NCBI GenBank assembly: GCA_038260455.1
Contig: JBBSNU010000001.1
Span: forward strand, 1 to 59,586
Reading direction: 5' to 3'
Source: Chroococcales cyanobacterium
Lineage (GTDB): Bacteria; Cyanobacteriota; Cyanobacteriia; Cyanobacteriales; Microcoleaceae
DNA: 59,586 bases
The notes beneath the pieces are model-generated. The model saw only the letters and a list, made by a program, of their open reading frames with translations. It had not been told where the DNA came from and searched no databases. A program made the translations under genes and the position numbers. Positions 27,824 to 49,587 of the stretch are shown here, in pieces; positions within the stretch are counted from its first letter, which is position 1, and the number at the start of each line of letters is the position of its first letter.

Positions 27824-27853
27824 TGCATAAAAAACCCAGAATACTCCCGATAT
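27824..27853 (+). promoter_or_regulatory. Putative alternative-sigma promoter, copy 1
   Basis: TGCATAA-N17-CGATAT upstream of 27922. Confidence 0.65.
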
Positions 27854-27921
27854 TTCAATAGAGACAAGCGAAACCTTTCAAGCTTGTTGACACCGCACCT
27901 CTGTTGAATTAGGAGTCAGTT

Positions 27922-28107
27922 ATGCGCCGGAAATTCACACTGTTAGAGACTACCTTGATTTCGCTGTTGCTTGCTAATTTGATTGGCAATATCTACTTAG
28001 AATCGAAGACGACTGCTGCTATCGCTGCGCCAGTCGATCGCCCTTCATCTCTGATACCTGTCGCGGGCTACTGCGAGTGTCCGAAAACTCCACCGGGTGG
28101 CAAATAG
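27922..28107 (+). CDS. Small exported peptide (61 aa)
   Basis: AGGAG RBS; basic N-terminus, hydrophobic stretch, AIA cleavage-like site; C-terminus GYCECPKTPPGGK. Confidence 0.7.
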   Translation: MRRKFTLLETTLISLLLANLIGNIYLESKTTAAIAAPVDRPSSLIPVAGYCECPKTPPGGK

Positions 28108-28119
28108 CAGAATTCGATC

Positions 28120-28147
28120 GCATAATTCTCTCCCCCTTAACGGATAT
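28120..28147 (+). promoter_or_regulatory. Putative alternative-sigma promoter, degenerate copy 2
   Basis: GCATAA-N16-GGATAT upstream of 28209. Confidence 0.45.
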
Positions 28148-28208
28148 ACAAATAGCCGCGCCCTTGTGCGCGGCTGTCAACCCTCAAAACTACAGGAACA
28201 TAAAAGTC

Positions 28209-28745
28209 ATGGCTACCACACTCCCTGCGATCGCACATTATCTCGAAAATCGCAACTGGGTTTACAATTTTGATGAGGACAATTCTCGGATTATGACGGG
28301 AGTTAATGCAGAGAATGTCGAGGGTTTTCTTATTGTAATTCAATTAACCGAAAATGGTGAATACGTGCAATTTATTGCTCCACAATTGTTGCAGGTAAAA
28401 GACCAAATTTTTAAAGGCATTCTGTTTCAAACTATGCTGGCTATTAACTCGGAAGTCAAGATGCTGCGGTTTGAATATGACCCGTCTGATGGGGAAGTTC
28501 GCGCTTCTATTGAGTTGCCTTTGGAGGATGCTGAGTTCACGGAACGCCAGTTTAATCGCTGTTTGAGCAGCTTGATTGAGTTGGTGGATGAAGTGGCAAT
28601 GCCTCGGTTAAAAACTGTGCTGGCAACTGGTATCGATCCTGGGAGAAAAAATTTGGCGGCGAGGCTTTTGGATGGGATGCCGGATGAGTTGGTGAGTTTG
28701 TTGGAACAGGCGATCGCTCTTCGTCAAGAACAACATGATATTTAA
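28209..28745 (+). CDS. YbjN / type III secretion chaperone-like protein (paralog 1)
   Basis: LTENGEYVQF, KMLRFEYDPSDGEVRASIELPLED; start MATTL (28209) with AGGA RBS, matching paralog 2. Confidence 0.75.
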   Translation: MATTLPAIAHYLENRNWVYNFDEDNSRIMTGVNAENVEGFLIVIQLTENGEYVQFIAPQLLQVKDQIFKGILFQTMLAINSEVKMLRFEYDPSDGEVRASIELPLEDAEFTERQFNRCLSSLIELVDEVAMPRLKTVLATGIDPGRKNLAARLLDGMPDELVSLLEQAIALRQEQHDI

Positions 28746-28810: not shown

Positions 28811-28839
28811 TGCATAATTTCTCTGTGCCGAGTCGATTA
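28811..28839 (+). promoter_or_regulatory. Putative alternative-sigma promoter, copy 3
   Basis: TGCATAA-N16-CGATTA upstream of 28866. Confidence 0.7.
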
Positions 28840-28865
28840 AATTTTGTACCGACTAACTGGGAGAA

Positions 28866-29957
28866 GTGAAGACTATGGGAAGACTCAACGGGCTACAAAG
28901 TGCGATCGCCACTGCTGACAGTACAAGTGCGATCGCCCTACCGGTAAACTTTGCCAGTGATAGCGGCCAAGATGCGTCCTATGAAGTGCGATCGCGCGCC
29001 AGAACCTCAGAAAACGGATTTTTGGGTTTGAAACTGCTGCGGGGAATTAACCAGCAGGAGTGGCAAAAAACCGCCGTAGAGATAAGTTTTTGGGGTGCGG
29101 TGGCTGCCTCGGCGGGTGCGGTTTCCCAGCAGGCGATGTTGGCCCTACCGCTGTCGCTGTGTTTGGGATTGAGTGCGCTGCATCGGCGACAGTGGGAGTC
29201 ACTTTTGCAGCAGCGTCTGGCTGCGACTGCGGAAATAGCGGTTGTTCAACAACGGGAAAATCGCCTTGATGCTGCGGCAATTAGTTCGATTCAGGAACGG
29301 GTTTTGAGGTTGGAGAAGGCTAATTTACCACCGCAAGTTACGCAATTGCAGCAGTGGGTGGCTGATTTGGACGATCGCCTGGACGAATTGGGCGATCGAA
29401 CTCAAAAACTCGATGAAATGCAGCAGCAATTAGCAGCCCTCAAACGATTAGCATCTGTCCCTGCCAAAAAAGGTCGCGGGCGAGTAGCAATATTTATTGA
29501 TGGCGCTAATTTGTTTTATGCGATCGGGGAATTGGGAATCAGAATTGATTATACCAAATTACTGAAATTTTTAGTAGGAGATGATACTTTATTTCGAGCT
29601 TTTTATTATACTGGTGTAGAGGCTACGGATGAAAAACAGCGGGGCTTTTTGTTGTGGATGCGGCATCACGGGTTCCGGGTGGTGTCTAAGCCGGTGTTGC
29701 AGCGGCCGGATGGATCGAAAAAAGCTAATTTGGATGTAGAGATCGGGTTAGATATTGTTGGTTTAGCGGGGGAATACGACACAGCTATTTTAGTCGGCGG
29801 GGATGGAGATTTAGCTTGTGCCTTGAATCAGGTTAGTTTTCAAGGGGGCAGGGTTGAGGTGCTGAGTTTAAGGTCGATGACGAGTGAGGCGCTGATTGAT
29901 GTCGCGGATTGTTATATAAATTTGGAGGATGTTAAGGACAAAATTTATAAGATTTAG
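28866..29957 (+). CDS. NYN (LabA/DUF88, PIN-like) domain protein with N-terminal hydrophobic segment and coiled coil
   Basis: AIFIDGANL, KANLDVEI, GGDGDL, ALIDVAD acidic motifs; coiled coil about residues 105-195. Confidence 0.88.
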   Translation: MKTMGRLNGLQSAIATADSTSAIALPVNFASDSGQDASYEVRSRARTSENGFLGLKLLRGINQQEWQKTAVEISFWGAVAASAGAVSQQAMLALPLSLCLGLSALHRRQWESLLQQRLAATAEIAVVQQRENRLDAAAISSIQERVLRLEKANLPPQVTQLQQWVADLDDRLDELGDRTQKLDEMQQQLAALKRLASVPAKKGRGRVAIFIDGANLFYAIGELGIRIDYTKLLKFLVGDDTLFRAFYYTGVEATDEKQRGFLLWMRHHGFRVVSKPVLQRPDGSKKANLDVEIGLDIVGLAGEYDTAILVGGDGDLACALNQVSFQGGRVEVLSLRSMTSEALIDVADCYINLEDVKDKIYKI

Positions 29958-29971
29958 AGATGAGGAATTTT

Positions 29972-30109: not shown

Positions 30110-33100
30110 ATGAACGAACAACGCCAGCAAGACTATCTTAATTTGATTCAAGCATTATTGGACTGTCCTCATGGGGAAGAGGTTAATATACTCAACGCCC
30201 ATCCACACCTGGTAGATGAAGGTTTGGTGCAGGTGATGGGACAAGTAGCAGAAATTATGACGCAACAAGGTAATGAGAACATCGCGAGATTTTTAACTGA
30301 TGGGGCACAGGAAATAGCAGCGTATCTAGGCAACGCCTCATCGACAGCACCCCCAGAAGAATATATCCTTTTCTTAGCTGAAGTCGTGCAAGCAACTGCT
30401 GATAGCAATGGCGATGCAGAAGTAGTCTATCCGATTCTTACGGCTAATCAAGATAAATTAAATGATACTTTAGTGACACTCTATCAAAAGTTGTCTAGCA
30501 CTATTTTCTCAAAAATTGTACCTGAGCATTCTCAAAGTTTTGCCGTAGTTTACGGCAATTTTAGCAAATTAATTCAACAATTTTCTTTAGGGAATATAGC
30601 TAGTAACTTAGAAATTGCGATTATTGGTTATGAATTAGTTTTAAGCGTCTTCACTCGCGACAAATTTCCCCAAGAGTGGGCAATAGTTCAAAATAATTTT
30701 GGTACGGCTTACAGTAACAGACTAAAGGGAGATAAAGCGAAGAATTTGGAAACAGCTATTCACTGTTACCAAAAAGCTTTATTGGAATGTACTCGCGACA
30801 AATTTCCCCAAGATTGGGCAATGCTTCAAAATAGTTTGGGAAGAATTTACGAGGACAGACTCGAAGGAGATAAAGCAGAAAATTTGGAAATAGTGATTAA
30901 GTGTTACCAAGAAGCTTTACTGGAATGCACACACAATAAATTTCCCCTAGATTGGGTAAGGACTCAAATTAGTTTGGGAAATGCATACCTTAACAGACTT
31001 AAGGGAGATAAAGCGGAGAATTTGGAAACGGCAATCGCCTGTTACCAGCAAATTTTACGAGAAGAGATTAGTACCCAGTTTTCCGAAATTTGGGCAATAG
31101 CTCAAGGTGTTTTGGGAAATGCTTATAGTCAGAGACTTAAGGGAGATAAAGCGGAGAATCTGGAAAAAGCAATTGAGTATTTGCAACTCGCTTTACAGGT
31201 AATTACAAAAGACAACTTTCCCCCAGATTGGGCAGGAACTCAATATTATTTAGGGAATGCTTACCAAATACGACTATTAGGAGATGAAGCCGAGAATCTG
31301 GAAAAGGCGATCGCTTGTTACGAACTCGCTTTACAGGTATGTACAAAAGACAACTTTCCGAAGAATTGGGCCATGACTCAAAATAGTTTGGGGATTGCTT
31401 ACAGTAACAGATTCAAGGGGAATAAAACGGAGAATTTGGAAACAGCGATTGCTTGTTATGAACTCGCTTTACAGGTAAAGGCTCAGGATAAATTTCCCCA
31501 AGATTGGGTAAACACTCAATGTAATTTGGGTAATGCTTACCAAGAACGAATATTAGGAGATAAAGCCGAGAATTTGGAACGCGCGAGGAATTGTTACGAA
31601 CTCGCTTTACTGGAATGTAAAAATGATAACTTTTCCCAAGATTGGGGAACGCTTCAAAATGAGTTGGGAAACATTTATTTATACAAAATCACTGGAGACA
31701 AAGCAGAGAATTTGGAAAAGGCAATCTCTTGTTACAAACTCGCTTTACAGGTACGTACAAAAGACAACTTTCCCCAAGATTGGGCAGCAACTCAAAATAA
31801 TTTGGGGAATGTTTACAGAGAAAGAGTTGTAGGAGATAAAGCCGAGAATTTGGAAAAAGCGATCGCCTGTTGCCAACTTGCTTTACAGGTACGTACAAAA
31901 GACAACTTTCCCAAAGGTTGGGCAACGAATCAACATACTTTGGGTAATGCTTATTGCGAAAGAGTTTTAGGAGATAAGGCAGAGAACTGGGAAAAAGCGA
32001 TCGCGTGTTACGAACTCGCTTTACTGGAACGCACTCAGGATAATTTCCCCCAAGATTGGGCTGCAACTCAAAATAACTTAGGTATTGCTTACCAAGAACG
32101 AATATTAGGAAATAAAGCCGAGAATTTAGAACGGGCGATCGCTTGTCACACACTCGCTTTACGGGAACGCACTCAGGACAAATTTCCCGAAGATTGGGCA
32201 ATGACTCAAAATAGTTTGGGAAATGACTACTGGAAGAGACTCAAGGGAGATAAAGCGGAGAATTTGGAAATGGCGATCGCGTGTTGGCGATCGGCACTAA
32301 CAATTAACACTCCTACCACCTTCCCACTACACTGTCTAATAGCAGGCAATAACTTAGGTAATGCAGCATTCACCGCCGGCAAATGGGAAATTGCCATTGA
32401 AGGATACAAACAAGCGATTGATGCTGTCGAAGAAAGTCGCACTCAAGCGCTGAATGACAAACGCCGCCAGGAAATAATTACCGAAGCTGTCGGGGTTTAT
32501 AGCGATATTGTACAAGCTTACATTAACCTAGGTCAAATCGACAAGGCAATCGAATATGCAGACCGATCGCGTTCCAAACGTTTGGTAGACTTAATGGCAA
32601 GTAACGACCTCTACGCAGGCGGCGAAATTCCTCCCCAAGTTCAGCAATATTTGCAGCAACATGATACACTGCAAGCACAAATTGATGCTGAACGAGAACG
32701 CCTCCAAGCAGAGTCCGACTCTAGCAAACAACAGACAGACAAACCAACAGACAAAGGCAGTTTAGCCCTCGCCCGCGCCACGAGAGAAGCCGCCACCCAA
32801 ACCATCATCGAGTTGGAAGCCCAGAAACAACAAGTCTGGGAACAAATGCGCCGTTTAGACCCCATTTTGGCCGGAGAAATTAAAGTCACTCCCCTAGATT
32901 TTGCCACCATCCAAAAACTCATCGACTCCCCCAAAATCGCCATCCTCAATTTCTTCACCACCAACAACGACACCCACATTTTCATCATCTACAAAAACCA
33001 ATCACCGCAACTGCACACCTGCACCGGCTTTGGCTATCAAACTTTGCGCGAGTTAGTCATTGACGAATGGTTAAATCCATATCTTAACAAGAAAAATGAT

Positions 33101-34288
33101 GGCGGCATTTGGTATGCAAAAATCTCTGAGTTTTTGCAAAAAATAGCCGAAAAATTGCAACTCACAACCTTAGTCGAAAAACATCTAACAAACATTGAGG
33201 AATTGATTATCATCCCGCACCTATTTTGGCATCAAATTCCCTTTGCAGCCTTACCTTTAACTCGCCCCACTCAGAACAATTCTCAGCCACCGGAAATTCA
33301 GCCATCAGGAATCATCCGCCAAGTCATCGAAATCTTTACCAGACTGGAGAAGAAAAACAACACCATAAATAATATCAGTACAATTCCCCCTGAAACAGAA
33401 ATAATGTCAACCCAATACTTAGGCGATAAATTCCGCCTGCGTTATGTTCCCAGTTGCCAGATTTTGCAATATTGCCAACAGCGTCCCCCCCTAGACAAAA
33501 TTAATTACGGCACTGTAGAAAATGCAGATGGTACACTTTCTGGTGCAGGGTTTGAAGGAGAAAAAATTGCCCAACTCTACAATATCCCCCAAAATCAGCG
33601 GTTAAGAGGTATCACCCAAGCCACCGTTAAAAATTATCGCCAATTAGCTAACCAAGTCCAAGTTTTGCACTCCAGCCATCACGCCTCATCACGCCTCGAC
33701 AGCCCCTTAGAATCGCGCCTAATTCTTGCCGATGGCAATATTACTTTAGGTCAAATCATGACCCCTGGGTTTCGACTTCCCAATCTCTCCGACGTGTTTC
33801 TTTCCTGTTGCGAAACCAATCTCAGTGTGGTTGGCATTAGCGATGATATTTTATCATTATCAACAGGGTTTCTCTGTGCGGGGGCGCGGAGTGTGGTGAG
33901 TACCTTGTGGTCAGTTGATGATTTAGCCACAGCTTTATTTTCCATTAGTTACTATCGGTATCGCCGCCAAGGTAAAAGCCGTTCCGAAGCCTTGCAAACA
34001 GCACAAAATAACTTGCGTAACTTGAAACTGGCAAAGGTAAAAGCTGATTTAGCATCGGATTTTCAGTTAATCAATGAAGCGCGGCAAGCTGCTAGGGATA
34101 AACTAAAAAAAGCGGATATAAATTCAGTAATTTATCAGCAATTACAAGATGATGTGATAAATTTCACCACTATTTCTGACGCAATTTATAACTTTCAGAC
34201 AAAAAGATTGCCGTCTTACGGTCAACAAGAATATCCTTTTGCCGATCCCTTTTATTGGGCTGGGTTCATCTGTTCCGGTTTGGCTTGA
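30110..34288 (+). CDS. TPR-repeat CHAT protease
   Basis: 12 tandem 46-aa TPR-like repeats; IIIPH, VLHSSHHA, VFLSCCET, GARSVVSTLWSVDD, PFYWAGF. Confidence 0.93.
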   Translation: MNEQRQQDYLNLIQALLDCPHGEEVNILNAHPHLVDEGLVQVMGQVAEIMTQQGNENIARFLTDGAQEIAAYLGNASSTAPPEEYILFLAEVVQATADSNGDAEVVYPILTANQDKLNDTLVTLYQKLSSTIFSKIVPEHSQSFAVVYGNFSKLIQQFSLGNIASNLEIAIIGYELVLSVFTRDKFPQEWAIVQNNFGTAYSNRLKGDKAKNLETAIHCYQKALLECTRDKFPQDWAMLQNSLGRIYEDRLEGDKAENLEIVIKCYQEALLECTHNKFPLDWVRTQISLGNAYLNRLKGDKAENLETAIACYQQILREEISTQFSEIWAIAQGVLGNAYSQRLKGDKAENLEKAIEYLQLALQVITKDNFPPDWAGTQYYLGNAYQIRLLGDEAENLEKAIACYELALQVCTKDNFPKNWAMTQNSLGIAYSNRFKGNKTENLETAIACYELALQVKAQDKFPQDWVNTQCNLGNAYQERILGDKAENLERARNCYELALLECKNDNFSQDWGTLQNELGNIYLYKITGDKAENLEKAISCYKLALQVRTKDNFPQDWAATQNNLGNVYRERVVGDKAENLEKAIACCQLALQVRTKDNFPKGWATNQHTLGNAYCERVLGDKAENWEKAIACYELALLERTQDNFPQDWAATQNNLGIAYQERILGNKAENLERAIACHTLALRERTQDKFPEDWAMTQNSLGNDYWKRLKGDKAENLEMAIACWRSALTINTPTTFPLHCLIAGNNLGNAAFTAGKWEIAIEGYKQAIDAVEESRTQALNDKRRQEIITEAVGVYSDIVQAYINLGQIDKAIEYADRSRSKRLVDLMASNDLYAGGEIPPQVQQYLQQHDTLQAQIDAERERLQAESDSSKQQTDKPTDKGSLALARATREAATQTIIELEAQKQQVWEQMRRLDPILAGEIKVTPLDFATIQKLIDSPKIAILNFFTTNNDTHIFIIYKNQSPQLHTCTGFGYQTLRELVIDEWLNPYLNKKNDGGIWYAKISEFLQKIAEKLQLTTLVEKHLTNIEELIIIPHLFWHQIPFAALPLTRPTQNNSQPPEIQPSGIIRQVIEIFTRLEKKNNTINNISTIPPETEIMSTQYLGDKFRLRYVPSCQILQYCQQRPPLDKINYGTVENADGTLSGAGFEGEKIAQLYNIPQNQRLRGITQATVKNYRQLANQVQVLHSSHHASSRLDSPLESRLILADGNITLGQIMTPGFRLPNLSDVFLSCCETNLSVVGISDDILSLSTGFLCAGARSVVSTLWSVDDLATALFSISYYRYRRQGKSRSEALQTAQNNLRNLKLAKVKADLASDFQLINEARQAARDKLKKADINSVIYQQLQDDVINFTTISDAIYNFQTKRLPSYGQQEYPFADPFYWAGFICSGLA
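30671..32326 (+). repeat. Coding tandem repeat, 12 x 138 bp
   Basis: Unit QDWAxTQNxLGNAYxxRxxGDKAENLExAIACYELALxxxTxDNFP; unit starts at 30671, 30809 and onward. Confidence 0.9.
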
Positions 34289-34369: not shown

Positions 34370-34398
34370 TGCATAACGATCGCCCTTACTGTCGATAT
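34370..34398 (+). promoter_or_regulatory. Putative alternative-sigma promoter, copy 4
   Basis: TGCATAA-N16-CGATAT upstream of 34429. Confidence 0.7.
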
Positions 34399-34428
34399 AG
34401 CAGTAGCACCGTAAGGAGAGCAACAGCC

Positions 34429-35166
34429 ATGAGCCGATATTACCACCCGACGCGCCACACCCGCAGCAGCCTGCAACCAACCGCCGCACCCACCCAAACA
34501 AATACAACTTGGTTCAAGTCGCCGGCGATTATTTTAGCAATGCTTCTAGGTGTTGGCGCTGTCGGCGCTACCCTATTCGTTGAGTTTACCACCCAGCACG
34601 TCATCCACGTTCGCGCCGACGACAGTTCCGATTCTGCTAAGAATTACACCGAACAGCGACAACAACACTGTCAAGCAAGCGTTCAGCACTACAAACCAGG
34701 CGATACTGCTATTAACATCGCTTTTGCCGATCGCCCCGTCACCACCCAAAACATCTCCATTCTCAACAGTTTATCTGTACTCGGTCAGTGCCAAAATACC
34801 AAAGCCCCGATTAGCAACAAGCAGCCCGGTACTTCTCTGATTTTACTCCTAGAGCGCATTCAAAATGTTGTCAAAAAAGAGCGCGATCGCAAAAATGACA
34901 ATCCCGTAGTGGTGACAGTCGAGATCCAAGATAGCGAACCGGGGCCAAATCAGCCCAATCCCAAGGATATTCAGCGCGTTAAGACACTTGTCCGCAGCAT
35001 TATCTCTGGCGGAGGTGCGATCGCGATCGCCGTTGAAGATGAAGCATTAAGAAACCAGCTAGACACAGCGTTAACTGACGAGGGAAATGTACAAATTTCC
35101 GCTTTCAACAATATCGCTTCCTCTGTTGATTGGGCTTTTACAACAGGTCGTAAAACCCACAATTAG
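34429..35166 (+). CDS. Membrane-anchored hypothetical protein, possibly a degenerate vWA-like fold
   Basis: AAGGAG RBS; single TM; DDSSDS, IAFAD, PGTSL and IQDSE resemble MIDAS positions. Confidence 0.65.
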   Translation: MSRYYHPTRHTRSSLQPTAAPTQTNTTWFKSPAIILAMLLGVGAVGATLFVEFTTQHVIHVRADDSSDSAKNYTEQRQQHCQASVQHYKPGDTAINIAFADRPVTTQNISILNSLSVLGQCQNTKAPISNKQPGTSLILLLERIQNVVKKERDRKNDNPVVVTVEIQDSEPGPNQPNPKDIQRVKTLVRSIISGGGAIAIAVEDEALRNQLDTALTDEGNVQISAFNNIASSVDWAFTTGRKTHN

Positions 35167-35464: not shown

Positions 35465-35493
35465 TGCATAACTTCTGACAATTCGCTCGATTA
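35465..35493 (+). promoter_or_regulatory. Putative alternative-sigma promoter, copy 5
   Basis: TGCATAA-N16-CGATTA upstream of 35534. Confidence 0.7.
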
Positions 35494-35533
35494 AAACTTA
35501 CAAGCAATCAAACTATTTACCGAGAATTTTATC

Positions 35534-39465: not shown

Positions 39466-42399
39466 ATGCTTCAAAACTTCTCTGGTCAAAATCTTCAAAG
39501 GCGAAATTTTCAAGGTCAAAACCTCACGGGTGCGAACTTCTCTCACGCAGATCTTCGAGAGGCTAATTTTACAAGGGCTATTCTTCAAGAATCTAGTTTT
39601 AGTAATGCTGATATACGAGGGACAAACTTTACAAATGCCGATCTCACCAAATCAAAATTTAATGAAGCAATAGCTGGAATGAAGCTTTCATCGATTATTT
39701 TTCTGATGTTGGCAATAATAGTATCAATCACTGGTATGGGATTTGCTTTTGGGATTGGTGCATTTCTAATGGGAGGAATTTTAAACACGAATAATGTTCA
39801 GCAGTATTTACTACCTATAAAAGTTTTTGTATCTTTAGCTGCTATTATAGGAAGTTACATAATCCATCGAGGAGATCGGTTGGCGCAGGAAACAAACTGG
39901 GATATTAATAATGAAAGAAAATTAGCATTAAAAACTTCCCAATTTTTTATTGGTTTAGGAATTATTTTAGTTATTATATCAATTATTCTAAATATCAACA
40001 AACAGTTTGATTTCTTTGGAATTCTTATCATTGCTACTACTTTAGTTTATGGTTTTAGCTTTGTATTGGCTTTAGCTGTAGCAGGTGCATTAGCAATAGC
40101 CGGTCGCTTAGGAATTTTTGGAGTATTTGCAGGCACAATGTCTCTGTTAGGCGCTATATCAGTAATTTTGGTTGATAATAAGTTTTTGAATTTTGATGGT
40201 GCTAGATGTTTGTTGCTTACTTTGTCTTTAATAATTAGTTTATTCGGAACATTTCTTGGTTACAAATGTATAAATAATGCCAAACATCTAGAAAAATTTA
40301 AAATTATTATAATAGATTTGGTTGCTTTAGGTGGGACAAGTTTTCGTGGTTCTAACTTAACAGAAGCTGATTTTACTATGGCAACTCTTAGCAATACCGA
40401 TTTCCGAAGAGCAAATTTAACACGAACCTGTTGGTATTCAGCTAAGAAAATTGATGTCGCTAGGATTGACAGAACTATACTAGAGTCATCATCAGCGAGG
40501 AATTTACTGATTAATCCTGAAAAAGGAAACAATAAATCTTACATGGACGCTAATTTGCGGGGAGCATATTTAGTGGAAGCAAATTTATCAAATGCCAATC
40601 TAAGCGGAGCAGATATCAGTGATTCAAATTTTTCGGGAGCAAATTTAGAAGGGGCGAATTTGAGTTTAATTCAAGCAGTTAATGCTAACTTTAATCGAGT
40701 TCAAATGACAGGAGCTTGTTTGGAAGCGTGGAATATTGATAGTAGTACGAAACTGGAGAATGTCGATTGTCGATTTATTTATCTTTTAGAAAATCCAAAG
40801 CCTGGAAGCGATGGCCGCGAACGTCGTCCCAGCAGCGGCGAGTTTGCACCCGGAGAATTTACAAAACTCTTCCAAGAAGTTCTAACTACTGTTGATTTAA
40901 TCTTTCGCAACGGTGTTGACTGGAAAACTTTTAGCGAAACCTTCAAAAAAGTGCAGGTTGAGAATGAAGATACTGAACTAACTATCCAGAGTATTGAAAA
41001 TAAAGGCGATGGCGTTGTTGTTGTCAGAGTAAGCGTTCCTCCCAATACCAACAAAGAAAAGATTCATAGCGAATTTACCCAAAACTACGAACTTGCTCTG
41101 AAAGCTATAGAGGAAAAATATCAAGGAATCATCGCAGGTAAAGAAGGACAGATTGAAATCTATCGCCAGCAGTTGGGGTATGAACGCCAGAGACACAAGG
41201 AACAAAACGCAGATCTGAAAGAGATTATTAGTATGCTGTCTAGCAAACCTGCGAATGTTCCCGTTAATATTCGTGAAGTAGAAGCAATTTCCGAAGATAA
41301 ATTAAGAAATAATAACTTAGTTATACTTACGCTAGAAAATGGCGATTTTAAAAAAGGTTTTTCATCTGTCATAGCTCAAGTTTGGACTGAGGGTGAAAGA
41401 CTACCAACTCAACATACAGGTCAGTTGCCACCAGAACCAGAGATAGTTGAACTTTATCATCATTGGCAGTCAGAATATAACCGTTTCATTGCACATCTTA
41501 AACCAAGCCGGATGGATAAACAGCTAGGACAAGTAACCAATTTTGCTACTGTAGAAATGTCTAATTTAGCGAAAAAATTAGAAAAAAAACTGAATCAATG
41601 GCTTATATCAGAACAATTTATTCCGATCGATCGCATATTGCGCCAAAATTTCAACCCAGGTGACGAACTCCAAATCATCATTCAATCTCAAAACCCAGAT
41701 GTGCGAAAACTCCCCTGGCATCTGTGGGAATTTTTTAACTCATACCCCTACGCAGAAATAGCCTTAAGTGCGCCTTTTTATGACCGAGTAGAAAAAATAG
41801 CACGTCCGAGAAATGAAATTAGAATCTTATCGATATTGGGTGATAACAAAAACATAAATACCAATCCAGATAGAAAAATCATCTCAACTCTCGTTCCCAA
41901 AGCAAATTTTTTAGATAAACCAAATCGCCAACAGTTAGATACTCAATTGTGGTCAGAACAAGGTTGGGATATCCTGTGTTTCTCCGGTCACAGTTCCAGC
42001 ACAATGGATGGCAGCGAGGGTTATATTTGTATCAACGATACGGATAAACTAACAATTCCTGACCTCAAATATGCTCTCCGAACAGCGATCGCACGCGGTT
42101 TGCAAATCGCCATTTTCAACTCTTGCGACGGTTTAGGCCTAGCGCGTCAACTGGCCGAATTGCACATCCCACAAATAATCGTTTTCCGAGAACCCGTTCC
42201 CGATCGCGTCGCACAGGAATTCTTGAAAAACTTCCTCACCGCCTTCGCTGGTGGGAAATCCTCTTATCTGGCAGTACGAGAAGCAAGAGAAAAACTATAC
42301 CACCTAGAAAAAGACTTTCCCTGCGCCACTTGGCTACCAGTCATCTGTCAAAACCCCGCCGAAGTGCCGCCCACATGGCGATCGCTCCAGCATCCCTAA
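39466..42399 (+). CDS. Pentapeptide-repeat membrane protein fused to C-terminal CHAT protease
   Basis: A(D/N)Lxx repeats, about 6 TM helices, GACLEAWNID...RRPSSGEFAPGEF block, coiled coil, WDILCFSGHS and IFNSCDGLG. Confidence 0.9.
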   Translation: MLQNFSGQNLQRRNFQGQNLTGANFSHADLREANFTRAILQESSFSNADIRGTNFTNADLTKSKFNEAIAGMKLSSIIFLMLAIIVSITGMGFAFGIGAFLMGGILNTNNVQQYLLPIKVFVSLAAIIGSYIIHRGDRLAQETNWDINNERKLALKTSQFFIGLGIILVIISIILNINKQFDFFGILIIATTLVYGFSFVLALAVAGALAIAGRLGIFGVFAGTMSLLGAISVILVDNKFLNFDGARCLLLTLSLIISLFGTFLGYKCINNAKHLEKFKIIIIDLVALGGTSFRGSNLTEADFTMATLSNTDFRRANLTRTCWYSAKKIDVARIDRTILESSSARNLLINPEKGNNKSYMDANLRGAYLVEANLSNANLSGADISDSNFSGANLEGANLSLIQAVNANFNRVQMTGACLEAWNIDSSTKLENVDCRFIYLLENPKPGSDGRERRPSSGEFAPGEFTKLFQEVLTTVDLIFRNGVDWKTFSETFKKVQVENEDTELTIQSIENKGDGVVVVRVSVPPNTNKEKIHSEFTQNYELALKAIEEKYQGIIAGKEGQIEIYRQQLGYERQRHKEQNADLKEIISMLSSKPANVPVNIREVEAISEDKLRNNNLVILTLENGDFKKGFSSVIAQVWTEGERLPTQHTGQLPPEPEIVELYHHWQSEYNRFIAHLKPSRMDKQLGQVTNFATVEMSNLAKKLEKKLNQWLISEQFIPIDRILRQNFNPGDELQIIIQSQNPDVRKLPWHLWEFFNSYPYAEIALSAPFYDRVEKIARPRNEIRILSILGDNKNINTNPDRKIISTLVPKANFLDKPNRQQLDTQLWSEQGWDILCFSGHSSSTMDGSEGYICINDTDKLTIPDLKYALRTAIARGLQIAIFNSCDGLGLARQLAELHIPQIIVFREPVPDRVAQEFLKNFLTAFAGGKSSYLAVREAREKLYHLEKDFPCATWLPVICQNPAEVPPTWRSLQHP

Positions 42400-42551: not shown

Positions 42552-42580
42552 TGCATAAAATTCCCAAGCCGCCACGAGAA
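42552..42580 (+). promoter_or_regulatory. Putative alternative-sigma promoter, copy 6
   Basis: TGCATAA-N16-CGAGAA upstream of 42620. Confidence 0.6.
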
Positions 42581-42619
42581 AGATATAGCAAACAACAACA
42601 CCCCCTCAACGAGGTTCTC

Positions 42620-43168
42620 ATGGCCGCCACTCTCAACCAAATTGCTCAGTATCTCGACAACCGCGACTGGAAATACGACTCTCAACCCGAAAACTCCCGC
42701 ATCATCACCGGAGTTAAAGCCGAGTCCGTTGACCGATTGGCGATCGCAATTAGCCTCAAAGAAAACGGCGAATACCTAGAATTAGCCGCCCCCAACCTCC
42801 TCCACGTCAAAAGCCACGTCTACAAAGGCGTACTCTTTCAAACCATGCTCGCTATTTCCTGGGAAACAAAAATGATTCGCTGGGAATATGACCCCCTAGA
42901 CGGCGAAATTCGCGCTTCCATCGCCTTTCCCCTCGAAGACGCACCCCTTACCAAACCACAATTCGATCGCGCTTTGAGCGGCTTAATTCACATTGTTGAC
43001 TCCCTATCTATGCCGCGACTCCAAGCAGTGCTCGCCACCGGCATCGATCCAGGAGAAAAAGAATTAGGCGAAAAATTGCTGGAGACTTTGCAGGAAATTC
43101 TGCCCGACGGTTCCCTGAAAATGTTGCAAGATGCGATCGTCGCCCGCAAACAGCGAGGCACTATTTAA
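42620..43168 (+). CDS. YbjN / type III secretion chaperone-like protein (paralog 2)
   Basis: LKENGEYLEL, KMIRWEYDPLDGEIRASIAFPLED; start MAATL with GAGG RBS. Confidence 0.75.
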   Translation: MAATLNQIAQYLDNRDWKYDSQPENSRIITGVKAESVDRLAIAISLKENGEYLELAAPNLLHVKSHVYKGVLFQTMLAISWETKMIRWEYDPLDGEIRASIAFPLEDAPLTKPQFDRALSGLIHIVDSLSMPRLQAVLATGIDPGEKELGEKLLETLQEILPDGSLKMLQDAIVARKQRGTI

Positions 43169-43172
43169 ATGT

Positions 43173-43201
43173 TGCATAAATCGTTGCACCTGTAGCGATT
43201 A
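43173..43201 (+). promoter_or_regulatory. Putative alternative-sigma promoter, copy 7 (in front of a sigma-like gene)
   Basis: TGCATAA-N16-CGATTA upstream of 43238. Confidence 0.7.
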
Positions 43202-43237
43202 CAAATTATCAACCGTTTACTTGGGAGTTACCTCCAC

Positions 43238-44842
43238 ATGAGCATATCGAAATTTTGCAGGTTCTTTCGCGGCCCTAATTGGGTGACAGACAAACGATTA
43301 GAAGAAAATTTAGACTACTTACAGAAGCAAGGCCGCGATCTGAATGATGAAATCGGCTTGCTGCGATATTTCTGTGAAGCTGTCCTGCTGCATTCAGACT
43401 CCTTAGCATTGCGACATTTATCGGCTTATTTGGAATCAGCTTGTGTATCTGCGGCTTGGAAACTCCACCAAAAAGATAACACACAAGAGTACACTTTGTT
43501 GGACTTTGTACAAATAGCCAGACTTCGCTTGTCAGAACCCACACTGATTAAAAATCAACAGGGCGTTGAACGAGAAGTTCCTTATTTTGTCAGTTTGTGT
43601 TTGAAGTATGACCCCGCTCAAGGTAAAATCACGACTTACGCCTATTTGAAACTTCGTTCTGCGATTGTATCAAAGGTGTACAAAAATCAGCAAACCCAAC
43701 GATTATCCGGTTGGGCTTTGTTGAAAAAAACTGGAAAATCAACTCTCACAACCGCCTTAAAACAAGGTGGAACTCCTGATGCCAAAATTAAACGTTGCTT
43801 AAATTGCTTGCAAGCATTTCATGCAGTTTACGGTAAATTCACCGTTGGTAAAAATTGTATATTGACTGAACCAACCGAAGCACAATGGATGGCAATCTGT
43901 CAATATTTATATGAACAAAATTTAGCGGTGAATCTTCCCGAAGTGAAGAATCTGTTAAACACCTGCGTTGAGGTATTGCGAGCTCGTGATAAAATCCAAA
44001 TCACCGCCTTGGATGGCGTGGATGAGACAGCGCAGGAAAGGCAACAATTAGAAATTGTTGAACAGTGGGAAACTCAACTGTTAGACTCGGAAGAAAAACA
44101 GGAGTTATTGACACAGGATGAAGAATTGATGGATTGTGTAGGAAGGGCGATCGCGACAATTCCTAAAAAGAAACCTCAAAAAGGTAAACTATCGATCGAT
44201 CCGCGCCAAGTCCTAATTTTATCTTACGCTTTACCCGGATTAACCGAGACTAAAATCGCTGCTTTGTTTGCGGTAAATCAATCAACCATTTCTCGTTATT
44301 TACACGGATACAAAACCTCGATTCTCAAAAGTTTGGCTGGCTGGCTTCATAGTGAACGAGGTTGGGAATTAACGACACAAAAAATTGATACTCTGTCTGA
44401 ACAATTAGAATTTTGGTTAAAATCCTATTGCAGAAGTCGGGTTGTCTACTGTTTTTTGCGGCAAGGTTTGAAATATCATCCTGAGTTGAGAAACAATCTG
44501 AACTTATTGTCAAATCATTTTGGCAATTTACCCGAAAAAACTTGGGCTAAAGCCAACAGTTTAGAACGGTATTTCAAGCCATCAGAATTAAGTGAGCAAT
44601 TGTCTTACTTAAATCAAGCGGCGCGTCCACAGTGCACAGAAATGCCAGATCAAGCTAAGTTGGAAGCCGCCAAAGCTAAGTTACATCAACAATTAACAAT
44701 TTGGCTGCAACAAACTTTGGGTTTAAAGGACTGTGATTTAAGTGCGATCGCTCGCCCTTCGAGTTTATTGATTGACTGTTTTCTGTATCAAGCTGACTAC
44801 GCCCTTTTACAACAAGAACGGAGATCAAACCATGCTATCTAG
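43238..44842 (+). CDS. Large divergent sigma-70-like (HetZ-related) protein
   Basis: HLSAYLESAC, region-2-like KYDPAQGKITTYAY, SGWALLK, region-4 HTH LTETKIAALFAVNQSTISRY; overlaps the DUF1822 start. Confidence 0.75.
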   Translation: MSISKFCRFFRGPNWVTDKRLEENLDYLQKQGRDLNDEIGLLRYFCEAVLLHSDSLALRHLSAYLESACVSAAWKLHQKDNTQEYTLLDFVQIARLRLSEPTLIKNQQGVEREVPYFVSLCLKYDPAQGKITTYAYLKLRSAIVSKVYKNQQTQRLSGWALLKKTGKSTLTTALKQGGTPDAKIKRCLNCLQAFHAVYGKFTVGKNCILTEPTEAQWMAICQYLYEQNLAVNLPEVKNLLNTCVEVLRARDKIQITALDGVDETAQERQQLEIVEQWETQLLDSEEKQELLTQDEELMDCVGRAIATIPKKKPQKGKLSIDPRQVLILSYALPGLTETKIAALFAVNQSTISRYLHGYKTSILKSLAGWLHSERGWELTTQKIDTLSEQLEFWLKSYCRSRVVYCFLRQGLKYHPELRNNLNLLSNHFGNLPEKTWAKANSLERYFKPSELSEQLSYLNQAARPQCTEMPDQAKLEAAKAKLHQQLTIWLQQTLGLKDCDLSAIARPSSLLIDCFLYQADYALLQQERRSNHAI

Positions 44843-46031
44843 CTTAGAACAATTACGACTCGCTTTTCCAAATCATTTATGGGTTGAGTTGACATCGGAA
44901 GAGTTGCGTAAATCTTTGCCATCTGCTGAAAAATTTTCCCACGAAGCAGCGGTTTATCGTGCTTATTTGAATCAGCTTTGTATCGATTATTTATTACCAT
45001 TATTTCCTGAAATTGCCAATGTGGAAGCATCACCGAAGATTGCCGCCCCATCCCAGAGGAATAGTTTGTGGGAATTGATTAATGGAACTGCGATCGAATT
45101 TTGCGGTCATCGTTTGATTATTATTCCCAGTGAAAGCATTGATGTGGATGAATTTGTCATTGAACAAGAATGGGTAGATATTCCCGAATTAGCCGGGGAT
45201 TATTATTTGGCGGTGCAGGTAAATTTAGAGGATGGATGGTTGCGAGTGTGCGGTTTTACCACCCATCGGAAGCTGAAAACAGAGGGGAGATATGATACGG
45301 GCGATCGCACTTATGCTCTAGATTCAGAGGAATTATTTGAAAATATCAATACTCTGTGGGTTTCCCAGGAACTTTGTAAGGCCGAAAAAGCAGAGATTCC
45401 ACCGTTACCAAGTTTATCTAGCAGCCAAGTAGAAAGGTTAATGGCAGAATTAGCTAAACCTTCACTTTATTCCCCGCGTTTGAAAGTGCCTTTTCCCCAG
45501 TGGGCGGCGCTTGTAGCTGCTGATAATTGGCGGCAGCAACTTTATAATCGCCGTATTGGCAAAGAATCGGTGGTGGAAAAATTGGTAAATTTGAGTCAGA
45601 ATATTTTTTCAGAATTGTGGTTGATGGCGAATGAATTGGTGCTAAGCTATGGGATTAATCTGGCTGTAGCGAGGAGTGGATCTCGTTCTGGAGACGCTGA
45701 GGGCGATCGACCTTTTCAAATGCGGGGAAGAATGATTGATTTGGGAATTCAATTATTTGGTAAACCTGTAGCATTAATTGTCTATTTCACACCAGAATCG
45801 GAGAATAAATGGAATATCCTTTTGCAGATTAAACCCGGTGGGGGGCAAACGTACTTGCCGCCAGATGTGGAACTGATTGTGTTGGATGATACTGGTGAGG
45901 TGTTTCTGGAAGCGCGATCTAGAAGTGCGGATAATTGGATTCAGTTGGAGTTTCGGGGTGAGCCTAGGGAACGGTTCAGTGTTAAAGTGGCTTTAGGTGA
46001 TGCCAATATTATTGAAAATTTCGTTATCTAA
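44832..46031 (+). CDS. DUF1822 family protein
   Basis: RAYLNQLC, QEWVDIPELAGDYYLAVQV, SPRL; C-terminus SRSADNWIQLEFRGEPRERFSVKVALGD...FVI. Start MLSS with GGAG RBS. Confidence 0.88.
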   Translation: MLSSLEQLRLAFPNHLWVELTSEELRKSLPSAEKFSHEAAVYRAYLNQLCIDYLLPLFPEIANVEASPKIAAPSQRNSLWELINGTAIEFCGHRLIIIPSESIDVDEFVIEQEWVDIPELAGDYYLAVQVNLEDGWLRVCGFTTHRKLKTEGRYDTGDRTYALDSEELFENINTLWVSQELCKAEKAEIPPLPSLSSSQVERLMAELAKPSLYSPRLKVPFPQWAALVAADNWRQQLYNRRIGKESVVEKLVNLSQNIFSELWLMANELVLSYGINLAVARSGSRSGDAEGDRPFQMRGRMIDLGIQLFGKPVALIVYFTPESENKWNILLQIKPGGGQTYLPPDVELIVLDDTGEVFLEARSRSADNWIQLEFRGEPRERFSVKVALGDANIIENFVI

Positions 46032-46052: not shown

Positions 46053-49001
46053 ATGGGTAAGTTAGTTGTCCTGATTGTTGGAGAAGGAAATTTTCAGCAA
46101 GGTTTTCCAGTCACGTTAGAAATTGGAGAAGAGGGCGATCGCCCTTTTCTTAAAATCACTGGATATCTGCCGCAAAATATAAGCATTGCTAACTTATATA
46201 GTAGTTGGCAGTCAAAGTATCATAGCCATATCAATAACGGACTAAGATTAGAAAAACCCAAAGAGCAAAAGTCTAATAGCTCAAATGATGAAATCAAAGA
46301 AAAAGCTAATGATTTGAGTGCAAATTTAAATTTTTGGCTGGGAACGCAGCAGTTTAGCCAGATTCGAGAAGAGTTGCTAACCAATCTTAAACCAGATGAC
46401 GAAATACGGTTTATCATTCAAACATCAAACATTCAGCTACGGCAACTACCCTGGCATATTTGGGATTTATTTAAGGACTATCCCTTGGCAGAAGTTGCCT
46501 TGAGTGTAGCAAATTACGGTCAAGTATCCTCACCTAAAACTTCCACAAATAAAGTCAGAATTTTAGCTGTTTTGGGTAATAGCAATGGGATTAATATTCA
46601 AAAAGACCGAGCTTTGCTAGACAAATTACCCAGTGCCGAAACTAAATTCTTATCTGAACCAAAGCAGCAAGAAATCACTGACCATCTGTTGAAGCATTCC
46701 TGGGATATTTTATTCTTTGCCGGTCACAGTCAAACAGAAGGAGAAAAGGGACGAATATTTATTAACAACAATAACGACAGCTTAACCATTAGCCAGTTAA
46801 AAAATGCACTAACAAAAGCGATTAGAAAAGGTCTAAAACTAGCTATTTTTAACTCTTGTGATGGATTGGGTTTAGCACAGGAACTAGCTGATTTGCAAAT
46901 TCCTCAAATCATTGTCATGCGAGAGCCTGTTCCTGACCCAGTAGCTCAGGAATTTTTAAAATATTTTCTAGCGGCTTTTGCAGATGGTAAATCTCTATAT
47001 CTATCAGTCAAAGAAGCACGAGAAAATTTACAAAAATTAGAACAAAATTGGCCTGGTATTTCTTGGTTGCCGATTATTTGCCAAAATCCGAGTCAATTAA
47101 TGCCAAATTGGGATAAGTTACGCACTGCTTCAAGTACGAGAACTCGTTCAACAATCTGGAATACAAAACGCTCTCCTCAAAAATTAGGCAATCGAAATGA
47201 CTTACTAGAAAAAGTAAAAAACGAAGTGGAAAATCGTTGGAAACAGTCACTGTACAATCAAGTAGTTATTCAATTACCAAAGGAACAGCAGCCCAAACAA
47301 GTACAACGACCTTGGGATGTAGAGGTCAAACTCAGTCATCTACCGAATCAAGTATTGGCTCCAGGAAAAGAATTAATAGATGTTTTAAAGCAGGGTAATA
47401 TCGCTGGAAAGTTATTAATTATAGGCGATCCAGGAAGCGGTAAAACGACAACTCTCTTAGAACTAGCAAAGCAGCTAATTACCCAGGCTGAAAACGATAC
47501 AGATGAGCCAATTCCTATTTTGTTAAACCTCTCATCCTGGAAAGATGAAAACCAATCTTTTACTAAATGGCTGATTGCTGAACTTGTCTCGAAATATCAT
47601 GTCAGTATAAATATTGCTCAATCGTGGTTAGAAAATCGGCAGATTTTGCCACTTCTTGACGGTTTAGACGAATTAGAAACAATCCCCCAAGAACGCTGTG
47701 TAGAGCAGATTAATCAATTGCTAGAAAGTCCCTATCGCCCCCGTGGTTTGGTTGTATGCAGTCGCGAGAAAGGATACGAATTTATTAACACCAAGCTCAA
47801 ACTGAACGGGGCAATCTGTTTGCAACCGGTAGCTAAGGCAGAAATTCAAAAATATTTCACAGATGTCAGAGGTCAAAACTTATGGGAAACAATTAAAGAA
47901 TATGACGCTTTCTTGAAAATATTAGAGTCTCCACTAATGTTGAATCTTATGGCGTTAGTAGGTCAGGAAATAGCGCTTGAAGATGATGTACAATTTAAGT
48001 CCACTAAAGAACTAGAAGATAGTTTGTTGAATGCTTACATTCAGCAAATGCTAAAACGGGAGATTACAAATGTATCCTATTCTCATCAAACAGAGCCATC
48101 CGCTAAAAAAACTCAGGACTGGTTAACATGGCTAGCTAACAAATATCAAGACGACTCTCAGACAGAGTTTTCAGGATTTTCGCTGGAGCAAATGCAGCCA
48201 TCTTGGTTGCCGAATCGTTATAAACAGATTTATGCTTTGGGAGTCGGACTAAATTTTGGTTTAAGTTTGGCGCTGATTGTTGGTAGCATTGTCTGGTTAA
48301 CTGTTGGCATACTTTTTGAGCCATTTTGGGGAATGGTTCTGGTTTTGGCGATCGCGCTTTTTGTAATTATACCCTCCAGCCTGTGGGCTTTTTTAACAGT
48401 TGGACAAGCTGAAAAAATAGAACCTGTAGAAACCCTAATTTTTTCACCCAAAAAGTTATTCAAGTCTTTAGTTGGAGGTCTGATAGCTGGACTAATTACT
48501 TGGAAATTGTCAGGAATGATGGTTTTCTCGATAGTTGGAATCCTCGTTGGATTGATTTATGGAGTGAGTGGTTCTAATCTTGAAAAAATAAAAATTCCCA
48601 ACCAAGGCATTTGGCAATCAGTCAAAAATGCAAGTTTATTTGCACTGATAGGCGCAATCAGTATGGCTATACCCGCTGCTATTCTGAGCCCACAGCTTCT
48701 GGCAATGATAGTCGAATCATCGGTTCTACAAAATAGAATTGGGACTACAAATATTGTTTTATCTGCCATTATTGTTGGCGGAGCTTTTGGATTAACTCAA
48801 GCAGGGATGGCTGGCATTCAACACTTCACCTTGCGCTTAATTCTTTGGTACAAGGGATATATGCCTTGGAACTATGCTCGTTTTCTCAACTATGCCACCG
48901 AACGAAGATTTTTGCAGCGAGTTGGCGGACGTTATCAATTCATTCATAAGTTATTACAAGTTCATTTGGCTACATGGGAACCTGATTTAGGGAAAAAGTA
49001 A
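46053..49001 (+). CDS. CHAT protease + NACHT NTPase + C-terminal TM helices
   Basis: FAGHS and NSCDG; Walker A GDPGSGKT, Walker B LLDGLDE; about 6 TM; NYARFLNYATERRFLQRVGGRYQFIH tail. Confidence 0.92.
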   Translation: MGKLVVLIVGEGNFQQGFPVTLEIGEEGDRPFLKITGYLPQNISIANLYSSWQSKYHSHINNGLRLEKPKEQKSNSSNDEIKEKANDLSANLNFWLGTQQFSQIREELLTNLKPDDEIRFIIQTSNIQLRQLPWHIWDLFKDYPLAEVALSVANYGQVSSPKTSTNKVRILAVLGNSNGINIQKDRALLDKLPSAETKFLSEPKQQEITDHLLKHSWDILFFAGHSQTEGEKGRIFINNNNDSLTISQLKNALTKAIRKGLKLAIFNSCDGLGLAQELADLQIPQIIVMREPVPDPVAQEFLKYFLAAFADGKSLYLSVKEARENLQKLEQNWPGISWLPIICQNPSQLMPNWDKLRTASSTRTRSTIWNTKRSPQKLGNRNDLLEKVKNEVENRWKQSLYNQVVIQLPKEQQPKQVQRPWDVEVKLSHLPNQVLAPGKELIDVLKQGNIAGKLLIIGDPGSGKTTTLLELAKQLITQAENDTDEPIPILLNLSSWKDENQSFTKWLIAELVSKYHVSINIAQSWLENRQILPLLDGLDELETIPQERCVEQINQLLESPYRPRGLVVCSREKGYEFINTKLKLNGAICLQPVAKAEIQKYFTDVRGQNLWETIKEYDAFLKILESPLMLNLMALVGQEIALEDDVQFKSTKELEDSLLNAYIQQMLKREITNVSYSHQTEPSAKKTQDWLTWLANKYQDDSQTEFSGFSLEQMQPSWLPNRYKQIYALGVGLNFGLSLALIVGSIVWLTVGILFEPFWGMVLVLAIALFVIIPSSLWAFLTVGQAEKIEPVETLIFSPKKLFKSLVGGLIAGLITWKLSGMMVFSIVGILVGLIYGVSGSNLEKIKIPNQGIWQSVKNASLFALIGAISMAIPAAILSPQLLAMIVESSVLQNRIGTTNIVLSAIIVGGAFGLTQAGMAGIQHFTLRLILWYKGYMPWNYARFLNYATERRFLQRVGGRYQFIHKLLQVHLATWEPDLGKK

Positions 49002-49007
49002 GTTATC

Positions 49008-49337
49008 TTACCCCACTGCAAAATCAGTAAATTGACCTACATAAGGAGCTTTAAAAGCTAAAACAATATCCTCTTTAGGAACTCCAGCAGCTACCAACTC
49101 ATTCGCCACTCCTGCTTCGGTTCTATCCCTTTGAATCCAAATTTTTTCTTTTTTTATATCAACGTGAATTGCACAACCGTAAACCCGTTTTTGCTCCTCC
49201 CAGCCCAAATGAAGCACTTGATAATGCTCCCGTTCCGTATCAAAAACTAATTGTACTTCTGTCTCAGTATCTAGGTCATTCCCTGAGTGTTGAGATAGAA
49301 TTGTTTGGACTAATTCTCCGTAATTTATTCTTTCCAT
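49008..49337 (-). CDS. xisI: XisI-family protein
   Basis: FDTEREHYQV, GW, HVDIKKEKIWIQRDRTE, LVAAGVPKEDIVLAF. Confidence 0.9.
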   Translation of the reverse strand: MERINYGELVQTILSQHSGNDLDTETEVQLVFDTEREHYQVLHLGWEEQKRVYGCAIHVDIKKEKIWIQRDRTEAGVANELVAAGVPKEDIVLAFKAPYVGQFTDFAVG

Positions 49338-49420
49338 AAAACTATCTCCTCTTTAATAGCTTCAAAAAAGATTTTATCTAATTCTGCTAGGTGCTCTTGA
49401 TTTAGAGAGGGCCGCATCAT
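49325..49420 (-). pseudogene. Remnant of xisH 3' end
   Basis: 31-aa ORF ending FEAIKEEIVLWKE*, overlapping the xisI ATG as xisH normally does; the rest of xisH is absent. Confidence 0.55.
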
Positions 49421-49558
49421 TCCGTCATCATATCATTACAGCGAATCCCGATCGCCCTCCCGAACTTTTCCCCCATCCGCATAACCATCCGCCTCACCCC
49501 CGATAAAGCAATAGCAGGCAAAAACCAGAGAGTCCAATTCAGTATTCCCCAGCAACCC

Positions 49559-49587
49559 TGCATAAAACCACAAACCCTTCACGACTA
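49559..49587 (+). promoter_or_regulatory. Putative alternative-sigma promoter, copy 8
   Basis: TGCATAA-N16-CGACTA upstream of 49616. Confidence 0.7.

Follow-up and report, generated by a model that had tools for sequence, protein, structure and literature searches.

Kaur, Iyer, Burroughs, and Aravind (eLife, 2021; PMC8195603) described neighbourhoods of EACC2 caspases that contain a sigma factor of the extracytoplasmic function (ECF) type and a DUF1822 protein, and they proposed that activation of the protease leads to a transcriptional response. The passages on these systems give no promoter, targets, or role for DUF1822. We analysed a related arrangement in the 59,586-nucleotide contig JBBSNU010000001.1 of a Chroococcales cyanobacterium (assembly GCA_038260455.1), the entire length of which is called the window here. 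Genes are named by their first coordinate and motif sites by the start position of their GCATAA box. The original prediction, made from the sequence alone, was that the boxes TGCATAA and CGA(T), 16 or 17 nt apart upstream of eight genes, form promoters of an ECF-type regulon driven by the sigma-like protein 43238. Beyond 24 kb, where the + strand carries almost all window genes, there are CHAT proteases, STAND NTPases, and two DUF1822 proteins, each of which is directly preceded by an unannotated protein. In gene content this matches the 2021 systems, in which CHAT/caspase genes with variable C-termini (STAND, multi-transmembrane, repeats) lie beside sigma and DUF1822 genes. Unlike the published passages, the window offers two sigma–DUF1822 pairs, a promoter with predicted starts, a list of targets, and a predicted anti-sigma interface.

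A second close system is sigma-HetZ/PatU3/HetF of Anabaena PCC 7120. The passages on it report that HetF, by way of its CHAT domain, cleaves PatU3 after Arg117 (PMC9457339), that PatU3 inhibits sigma-HetZ via the inserts and sigma4 of the latter (PMC13342950; PMC9457339), and that the proven HetZ promoter consensus is TCCGGA-N16-17-TGNA-N7-9-T (PMC13342950). Going by those passages, the window has in common with this system a sigma factor with an inserted domain, an adjacent gene for a candidate inhibitor, a CHAT protease, and an identical spacing of promoter elements (6-nt box, N16-17, 4-nt box, N7-9, T). It differs in that GCATAA takes the place of TCCGGA as −35 box, DUF1822 serves as the partner, heterocyst genes are not the targets, and the genome has its own HetZ on another contig (C29).

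A TPR-CHAT protease, an inhibitor, and a sigma factor gated by the CHAT protease are also found in type III-E CRISPR (Csx29/Csx30/CASP-sigma). The window shares this logic; neither CRISPR nor Cas genes were seen there, and the inhibitor would be DUF1822. We found no published report of this promoter in a literature search that had subscription papers and the PNAS and eLife supplements outside its reach. The gene set was catalogued in 2021; new here are the start element, the division into N16 and N17 regulons within one genome, a possible spacer code, the withdrawal of the HetZ label from 43238, and the modelled anti-sigma interface.

A probable three-part promoter signal in the island

On both strands of the window there are eight matches to GCATAA-N16/17-CGA, versus a mean of 0.93 in 100 shuffles (largest 4; none of the 100 reached 8). 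Seven of these are sites of the original prediction and the other, 49479, is an additional site that it had overlooked. Its remaining site, 28120, has GGA as second box and so falls outside this count. All eight predicted sites were verified in position, spacer, and second box. The first box is GCATAA at every site, but the leading T of the predicted TGCATAA did not hold, since the preceding base is T or C. When spacers from 8 to 25 nt were compared, N16 gave seven matches in the window, N17 gave one, and each other spacer gave at most one. This agrees with the predicted enrichment near the island, with all of these sites on the sense strand. The spacer spectrum of the whole genome (G000; 5.1 Mb, 759 contigs, 74.6% complete) is flat, with 34 matches at N16 versus 19–46 at other spacers, and the N16 enrichment is thus confined to the island. 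A genome-wide N16 regulon was not found by spacer spectrum, matrix, or three-part scans of this genome.

The sites and genes are listed below, all on the + strand. Sites with a 16-nt spacer are called class A and those with a 17-nt spacer class B.

27824..27860, +, class B site 27825 (N17, CGATAT), predicted start 27860, before the 61-aa peptide gene
27922..28107, +, 61-aa peptide with apolar N-terminus, no Pfam match, export only putative
28119..28154, +, class A site 28120 (CGCATAA/GGA variant, GGATAT), predicted start 28154
28209..28745, +, YbjN-like protein 1 (PF10722, E 1.7e-4; 55% identical to 42620)
28811..28846, +, class A site 28812 (CGATTA), predicted start 28846
28866..29957, +, protein with coiled coil and NYN (LabA-like) nuclease domain
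30110..34288, +, TPR-CHAT protease with His/Cys dyad, no site of its own, possibly read through from 28811
34370..34405, +, class A site 34371 (CGATAT), predicted start 34405
34429..35166, +, 245-aa protein with a single transmembrane segment, no family match
35465..35500, +, class A site 35466 (CGATTA), predicted start 35500
35534..36844, +, 436-aa membrane protein, three hydrophobic segments, C-terminal coiled-coil-like region
36974..37690, +, sigma-like protein of only 238 aa, the other candidate reader, lacking a site directly upstream
37708..38985, +, DUF1822 protein paired with the short sigma (PF08852, E 1e-70)
39466..42399, +, pentapeptide-repeat, multi-transmembrane CHAT protease, dyad intact
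42552..42587, +, class A site 42553 (CGAGAA), predicted start 42587
42620..43168, +, YbjN-like protein 2
43173..43208, +, class A self-site 43174 of the long sigma (CGATTA), predicted start 43208
43238..44842, +, long sigma-70-family protein, 534 aa, main candidate reader
44832..46031, +, DUF1822 partner of the long sigma, predicted anti-sigma
46053..49001, +, CHAT-NACHT-multi-transmembrane protein, His/Cys dyad intact, candidate sensor protease
49478..49513, +, class A site 49479, distal site of the E2 gene, predicted start 49513
49559..49594, +, class A site 49560 (CGACTA), proximal site of the E2 gene, predicted start 49594
49616..50158, +, 180-aa protein with E2/UBC fold (best match CdnG-E2, Z 8.3, root-mean-square deviation (rmsd) 5.5, 124 aligned)
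50346..52241, +, fusion of JAB, a middle domain, and E1/ThiF

All nine sites lie outside genes if ATG starts are applied, in a window of which 8.8% is intergenic. Sites 28120 and 42553 are within longer open reading frame calls that start with GTG or TTG, and the homologues of these genes begin at ATG. The second box had been placed about 30–70 nt before the start codon; we measured 32–74 nt, and 115 nt for 49479. The spacers are unrelated, as predicted, with a mean identity of 0.28 among the eight N16 sites. A position weight matrix trained on 43 sites from other genomes placed seven N16 sites on top in the window (19.9–24.5), followed by a match in a coding region on the minus strand (29521; 16.8) and by 43174 (13.9); the core columns of this matrix are circular because the training sites were selected by regular expression from related loci.

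A T followed by a purine occurs at offsets 11–12 from the first base of the second box in all nine sites (P = 1.2e-7 allowing 20 offsets; local intergenic dinucleotide frequency 0.12), and this element played no part in defining the motif. A pyrimidine-purine step at −1/+1 is the usual start of bacterial transcription. Elsewhere in the genome the element occurs in 11 of 12 N17 sites; of 20 sites in other genomes, chosen from a listing before the element was noticed, 14 have it. It was found in 10 of 31 looser matches, in only 3 of 16 N16 matches outside the contig, and in 12 of 62 controls with the wrong spacer. When the element was included in the search, there were 8 N16 sites in the 60 kb of the island versus 12 in the other 5.0 Mb, which is background (4–18 at other spacers). 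The sequence patterns indicate that the three-part signal, YGCATAA-N16-(C/G)GA-N8-TR, is very likely a promoter. The motif is very improbable as an operator for a DNA-binding regulator, such as the winged-helix STAND protein 24128, or as the remnant of a repeat. Winged-helix-like genes are divergent from class B sites on contigs C3 and C27, and some class B sites are tandem near-copies, but the motif lacks dyad symmetry and has strict sense orientation and unrelated spacers. A promoter is favoured over an operator because the T-purine sits at a fixed start-site distance behind the second box; in addition, long-sigma loci with housekeeping neighbours have a single site, placed immediately ahead of the sigma gene.

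Fixed spacing, sense orientation, counts above chance, and the start element together support the predicted two-box sigma-type promoter and island regulon. The label "ECF-type" fits only loosely, given that 43238 scores under the TIGR02937 cut-off and the −10 core is like that of sigma28. In the published passages on sigma28/FliA promoters (PMC12784957), the end of GCCGATAA matches the core CGATA(A). Those promoters differ in having TCTAAAG at −35 and a spacing that is 1–2 nt different; class A does not require the extended GC, and there are no flagellar genes. The resemblance to sigma28 is one of motif only.

Presence at the orthologous place alone counts as conservation here, since the boxes served to pick the sites. 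Both E2-gene sites are kept in 3 of 3 orthologous loci, the site of the YbjN gene 42620 in 3 of 3 orthologues, and that of the NYN gene in 2 of 4 close orthologues. A site precedes the orthologue of 34429 in five loci (L120, L123, L124, L138, L146) and that of 35534 in four (L123, L124, L176, L146). Among 23 ortholog pairs, identity was 49% in the spacer and 43% in the upstream flank.

The original prediction assigned one motif to all eight genes. This holds for the seven with N16 sites and fails for 27825, which has a 17-nt spacer. With C[ACT]GATA as second box, spacer 17 gave 14 sites in the genome versus 0–3 at other spacers, and most of these class B sites continue with an AT-rich stretch and then TAG. 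Among them are 27825, which has a homologous N17 site in another locus (L320), and a site 65 nt ahead of an operon on contig C26 that encodes a 279-aa short sigma, a DUF1822 protein, and a CHAT protein. Of 30 loci with C26-type sigmas, largely from within the genus, 23 have a self-site of this type at 64–65 nt. With 27825 in class B, a single regulon for all sites was rejected. Judged by its sequence class, 27825 is likely read by a different sigma of the family, the one encoded on C26, and the peptide gene 27922, which had been placed in the 43238 regulon, is therefore likely in another regulon. Some class B sites occur as tandem near-copies 140–250 nt apart (C3:18649,18791; C27:3586,3744,3919; C26:11325,11574,11828); these precede genes for TPR or very large proteins and are divergent from winged-helix-like genes.

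In the loci examined, spacer length (15, 16, or 17 nt) goes with sigma clade, with kin among these loci not independent. The exceptions are N17 self-sites of a 478-aa long clade and one N16 site in L137. It is possible, rather than probable, that cyanobacterial caspase-gated sigmas share a GCATAA −35, an xGAT −10 core, and the start element, with spacer length as the main feature that keeps regulons apart (15 nt in one clade of short sigmas, 16 nt in that of 43238, and 17 nt in that of C26). The same tentative reading would give one Microcoleus-like genome two insulated regulons and make the island a self-amplifying, protease-triggered defence or death programme with an E2/JAB/E1 module and a nuclease. 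Such a code, if true, would insulate paralogous sigma factors in an unusual manner and would supply orthogonal promoters switched by proteases.

The sigma-like proteins and their relation to the N16 sites

The long sigma 43238 matched TIGR02937 at 28.2 bits (E 1.2e-6), below the curated cut-off of 42.9 bits. Its structure model (predicted local distance difference test, pLDDT, 77) has sigma2 at residues of about 11–156, an inserted helical domain at about 157–258, sigma4 at about 292–371, and a C-terminal extension. Sigma2 aligned with pro-sigmaK (Z 8.7, rmsd 2.9, 99 aligned) and sigma4 with sigmaE region 4 (Z 7.0, rmsd 1.9, 69 aligned). The top rows of a Foldseek search were sigma factors, none reaching E 0.001, and sigmaD, WhiG, and other group 2/3 sigmas were among these weak fold matches. 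A sequence search of the PDB gave nothing at E below 0.29, and a metagenome scan with the single protein found no relative. In a profile-profile comparison, 43238 was homologous over 377 columns (probability 100%) to widespread 400-aa DUF1822-coupled sigmas; relatives exceed the TIGR02937 cut-off, and the 400-aa ones match NF041236 weakly. The protein 43238 is a DUF1822-coupled member of the sigma-70 family, and the short 36974 belongs distantly to the same group (96% versus the 400-aa profile).

The link to HetZ that had been suggested for 43238 did not hold as family membership, which was rejected on two comparisons. The HetZ model NF037963 finds the HetZ of this genome on C29 and has no match in the window, and the profile-profile probability of 43238 versus HetZ was 5.5%, in the sigma4 region only. 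There is no TCCGGA promoter within 300 nt of 43238, and GCATAA is at all sites. Three other loci (L122:5761-6888, L126, L131) have a 375-aa gene, with its own N16 site, that fuses a short-sigma-like region to the C-terminal domain of DUF1822. Open frames of 966 aa at long-sigma matches in L068 and L070 (G615 and G540) suggest sigma and DUF1822 in one frame, or read-through.

We placed 84 distinct sigma proteins in a tree (FastTree), leaving out rows with less than 330 nt of upstream DNA. All 18 rows of the clade with 43238 (support 86) had a self-site within 330 nt, and across the two long clades the count was 28 of 31 rows. None was found among the 46 rows of the 400-aa clade, the 4 of another clade, or the 3 unplaced rows. 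With this site at its own gene, the predicted autoregulation of 43238 is likely. Fourteen long-sigma loci have 34 three-part N16 sites versus 0–3 at other spacers, and 15 of the 34 are in seven loci without a 36974-type gene. Two profiles found no short sigma in G043 (99% complete) or in G525, both of which have a long sigma with its site. The self-site in G043 reads GGATA; among the 16 matches listed genome-wide for it, eight are TGCATAA-N16-GGATA (the self-site and seven dispersed ones) and none is CGATA. A site directly upstream is present in only one of the 12 closest relatives of 36974; in seven of them a TATAAT/TATAAA hexamer takes its place. Short sigmas whose helix resembles that of 36974 (GTxTxHW) are mostly among N15 sites, and the window has no N15 site.

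Several observations weigh against control by the island's own sigmas, or by 43238 alone. G043 encodes two other DUF1822-coupled sigmas. A syntenic island with four N16 sites is present in G481 (99% complete) without a long-sigma profile match, and in G051 N16 sites precede the homologues of 34429 and 35534, beside a short sigma, with only 400-aa-type matches. The sigma4 helices differ strongly among clades that share GCATAA, an odd finding for a single −35 sequence. Kinship among the loci means that the counts are not independent, and at its level of completeness G000 may miss another reader. In addition, the cleavage of DUF1822 by a CHAT protease, proposed below, would follow by analogy. DUF1822 is present in 202 of 301 cyanobacterial genomes, and the differences between genomes with and without it are small: the ratio of two-box matches to a reversed control was 2.9 versus 2.2 (300 genomes; the reversed pattern is a poor control), and in 200 genomes there were 0.18 versus 0.09 three-part sites per Mb and start-element fractions of 0.28 versus 0.21 (p 0.20).

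One alternative is that 36974 is the sole reader, made from a housekeeping promoter and freed by proteolysis, with 43238 merely one target in a cascade. In two genomes that gave no long-clade gene, G481 and G051, short-sigma cassettes have N16 sites beside them, and the unit of 34429, 35534, short sigma, DUF1822, and TPR-CHAT travels without the long sigma. These sites in two near-complete genomes leave sole control by 43238 in doubt. Against 36974 as sole reader stand G043 and G525, the 15 sites in loci without a gene of its type, and two of its close relatives (L139, L140) that have no site nearby; moreover, because the cargo of G481 is partly truncated, the sites there may be orphans or be read by its 213-aa short sigmas. 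We regard this alternative as improbable.

It is quite improbable that a sigma encoded elsewhere reads all the sites, with the island sigmas downstream of it. This could be a member on C26 or C411, a member missing from the incomplete assembly, or an unrelated host sigma. Two-box matches are about 2.2-fold over the reversed control even in 99 genomes without a DUF1822 match, and 15 of 69 DUF1822-negative genomes have a three-part match; when five of these were tested, three had no short-sigma match and two had weak ones only. However, three of four other DUF1822-negative genomes tested do carry a short sigma, one of them beside the site, and the reversed pattern is a poor control. The concentration of N16 three-part sites in the island, and the N17 spacing of the C26 self-site and its class, also speak against an outside reader.

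The best explanation of the whole is that the DUF1822-coupled sigmas of the island probably read the N16 promoters, with 43238 the most likely reader and 36974 possibly a reader too. That both proteins read the motif is a possibility we hold tentatively; that 43238 alone does so is doubtful.

DUF1822 and a proposed protease switch

The DUF1822 gene 44832 overlaps the stop of the sigma gene 43238. A modelled complex of the two proteins scored 0.89 versus 0.00 for the best of three controls; runs agreed in at least 88% of contacts, and the pLDDT of the partner was at least 78. Among solved complexes, 116 of 157 attained this mark, as did 2 of 215 mismatched pairs; the calibration is only roughly valid for the alignments used. 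The modelled contacts involve sigma residues 140–156, 163–227, and 349–390, including the recognition helix of sigma4, and only residues 4–218 of DUF1822, which has a variable Arg-rich linker before its C-terminal domain. The model thus predicts that 44832 is an anti-sigma that covers the DNA-reading helix of 43238. The His/Cys dyads of the CHAT proteins 30110, 39466, 46053, 52385, and 481 are intact, and 56696 has Ser for Cys. The region before CHAT in 46053 has no family assignment.

We suggest that 44832 would bind 43238 over sigma2, the insert, and the sigma4 recognition helix. On some signal, a nearby CHAT protease might cut DUF1822 after an Arg of the linker and release the sigma, by analogy with HetF, PatU3, and HetZ. 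Free 43238 would then switch on its own gene in a positive feedback loop and drive a burst of the YbjN-like proteins, the NYN nuclease, two membrane proteins, and the E2/JAB/E1 module. The output would likely be a response to stress or against an invader.

No output was given for the caspase-sigma-DUF1822 systems when they were predicted in 2021, and a promoter with predicted starts makes the prediction directly testable. The three-plasmid E. coli system used for HetZ suits each sigma, box, and spacer length. If the proposal is true, DUF1822 gains a job as anti-sigma, an output of prokaryotic caspase-like signalling in mat-forming cyanobacteria is named, and such regulons become callable from sequence.

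Cargo, distribution, and surroundings

The ubiquitin-like label originally given to 49616–52241 is borne out by the E2 fold, JAB, and E1; in the E2-fold protein H132 is invariant and C140 nearly so. In the window PADLOC gave only generic E1-E2 and NYN matches. A GNAT acetyltransferase and more CHAT genes are found at other loci. Between strains the island cargo shows turnover and frequent truncation, much like that of conflict systems, and it may have a role in defence or death. Named relatives of the window genes are from Microcoleus and other Oscillatoriales, which makes a filamentous, Microcoleus-like host likely.

The same motif is found in distant cyanobacteria ahead of small proteins and of large, apparently secreted ones. 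In eight loci of one family (L241–L248, f50) conserved three-part sites precede small unannotated proteins of 113–126 aa, in housekeeping surroundings and far from a sigma gene. Plasmid alpha of PCC 7120 carries a sigma–DUF1822 pair (L311) and a candidate site (NC_003276.1, 339026-339051). This site is 118 nt before a CHASE2-domain gene that is divergent from the pair, and its start element is off by one; a second match falls inside a coding region.

On the minus strand at 2032–23953, where there are no motif sites, the window has a long cluster with Double-GTPase-like genes and a VirD4/TraG-like ATPase at its head. It also has three vWA proteins, FHA proteins, two Ser/Thr kinases, a PP2C phosphatase, VanY, and ARC6-like IMS domains. 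At the other end, 52385–58693 encodes a CHAT-iSTAND protein, a MoxR-like AAA protein, an HTH-vWA protein, and a CHAT protein with Ser for the catalytic Cys, and is a MoxR-vWA ternary-type system without the motif. A solitary xisI gene is on the minus strand at 49008–49337; XisI and small toxin-antitoxin-like genes are repeated inserts in related islands. Short tandem repeats with a unit of 14–18 nt (36830–36893) span the stop of 35534 ahead of the short sigma gene. RNA matches were limited to two runs of one study, which contained 7% of the sequence words, as contigs only. The short intergenic repeats at 50200–50280 and 35416–35430 are matched by many RNA contigs of other loci and are likely dispersed repeats.

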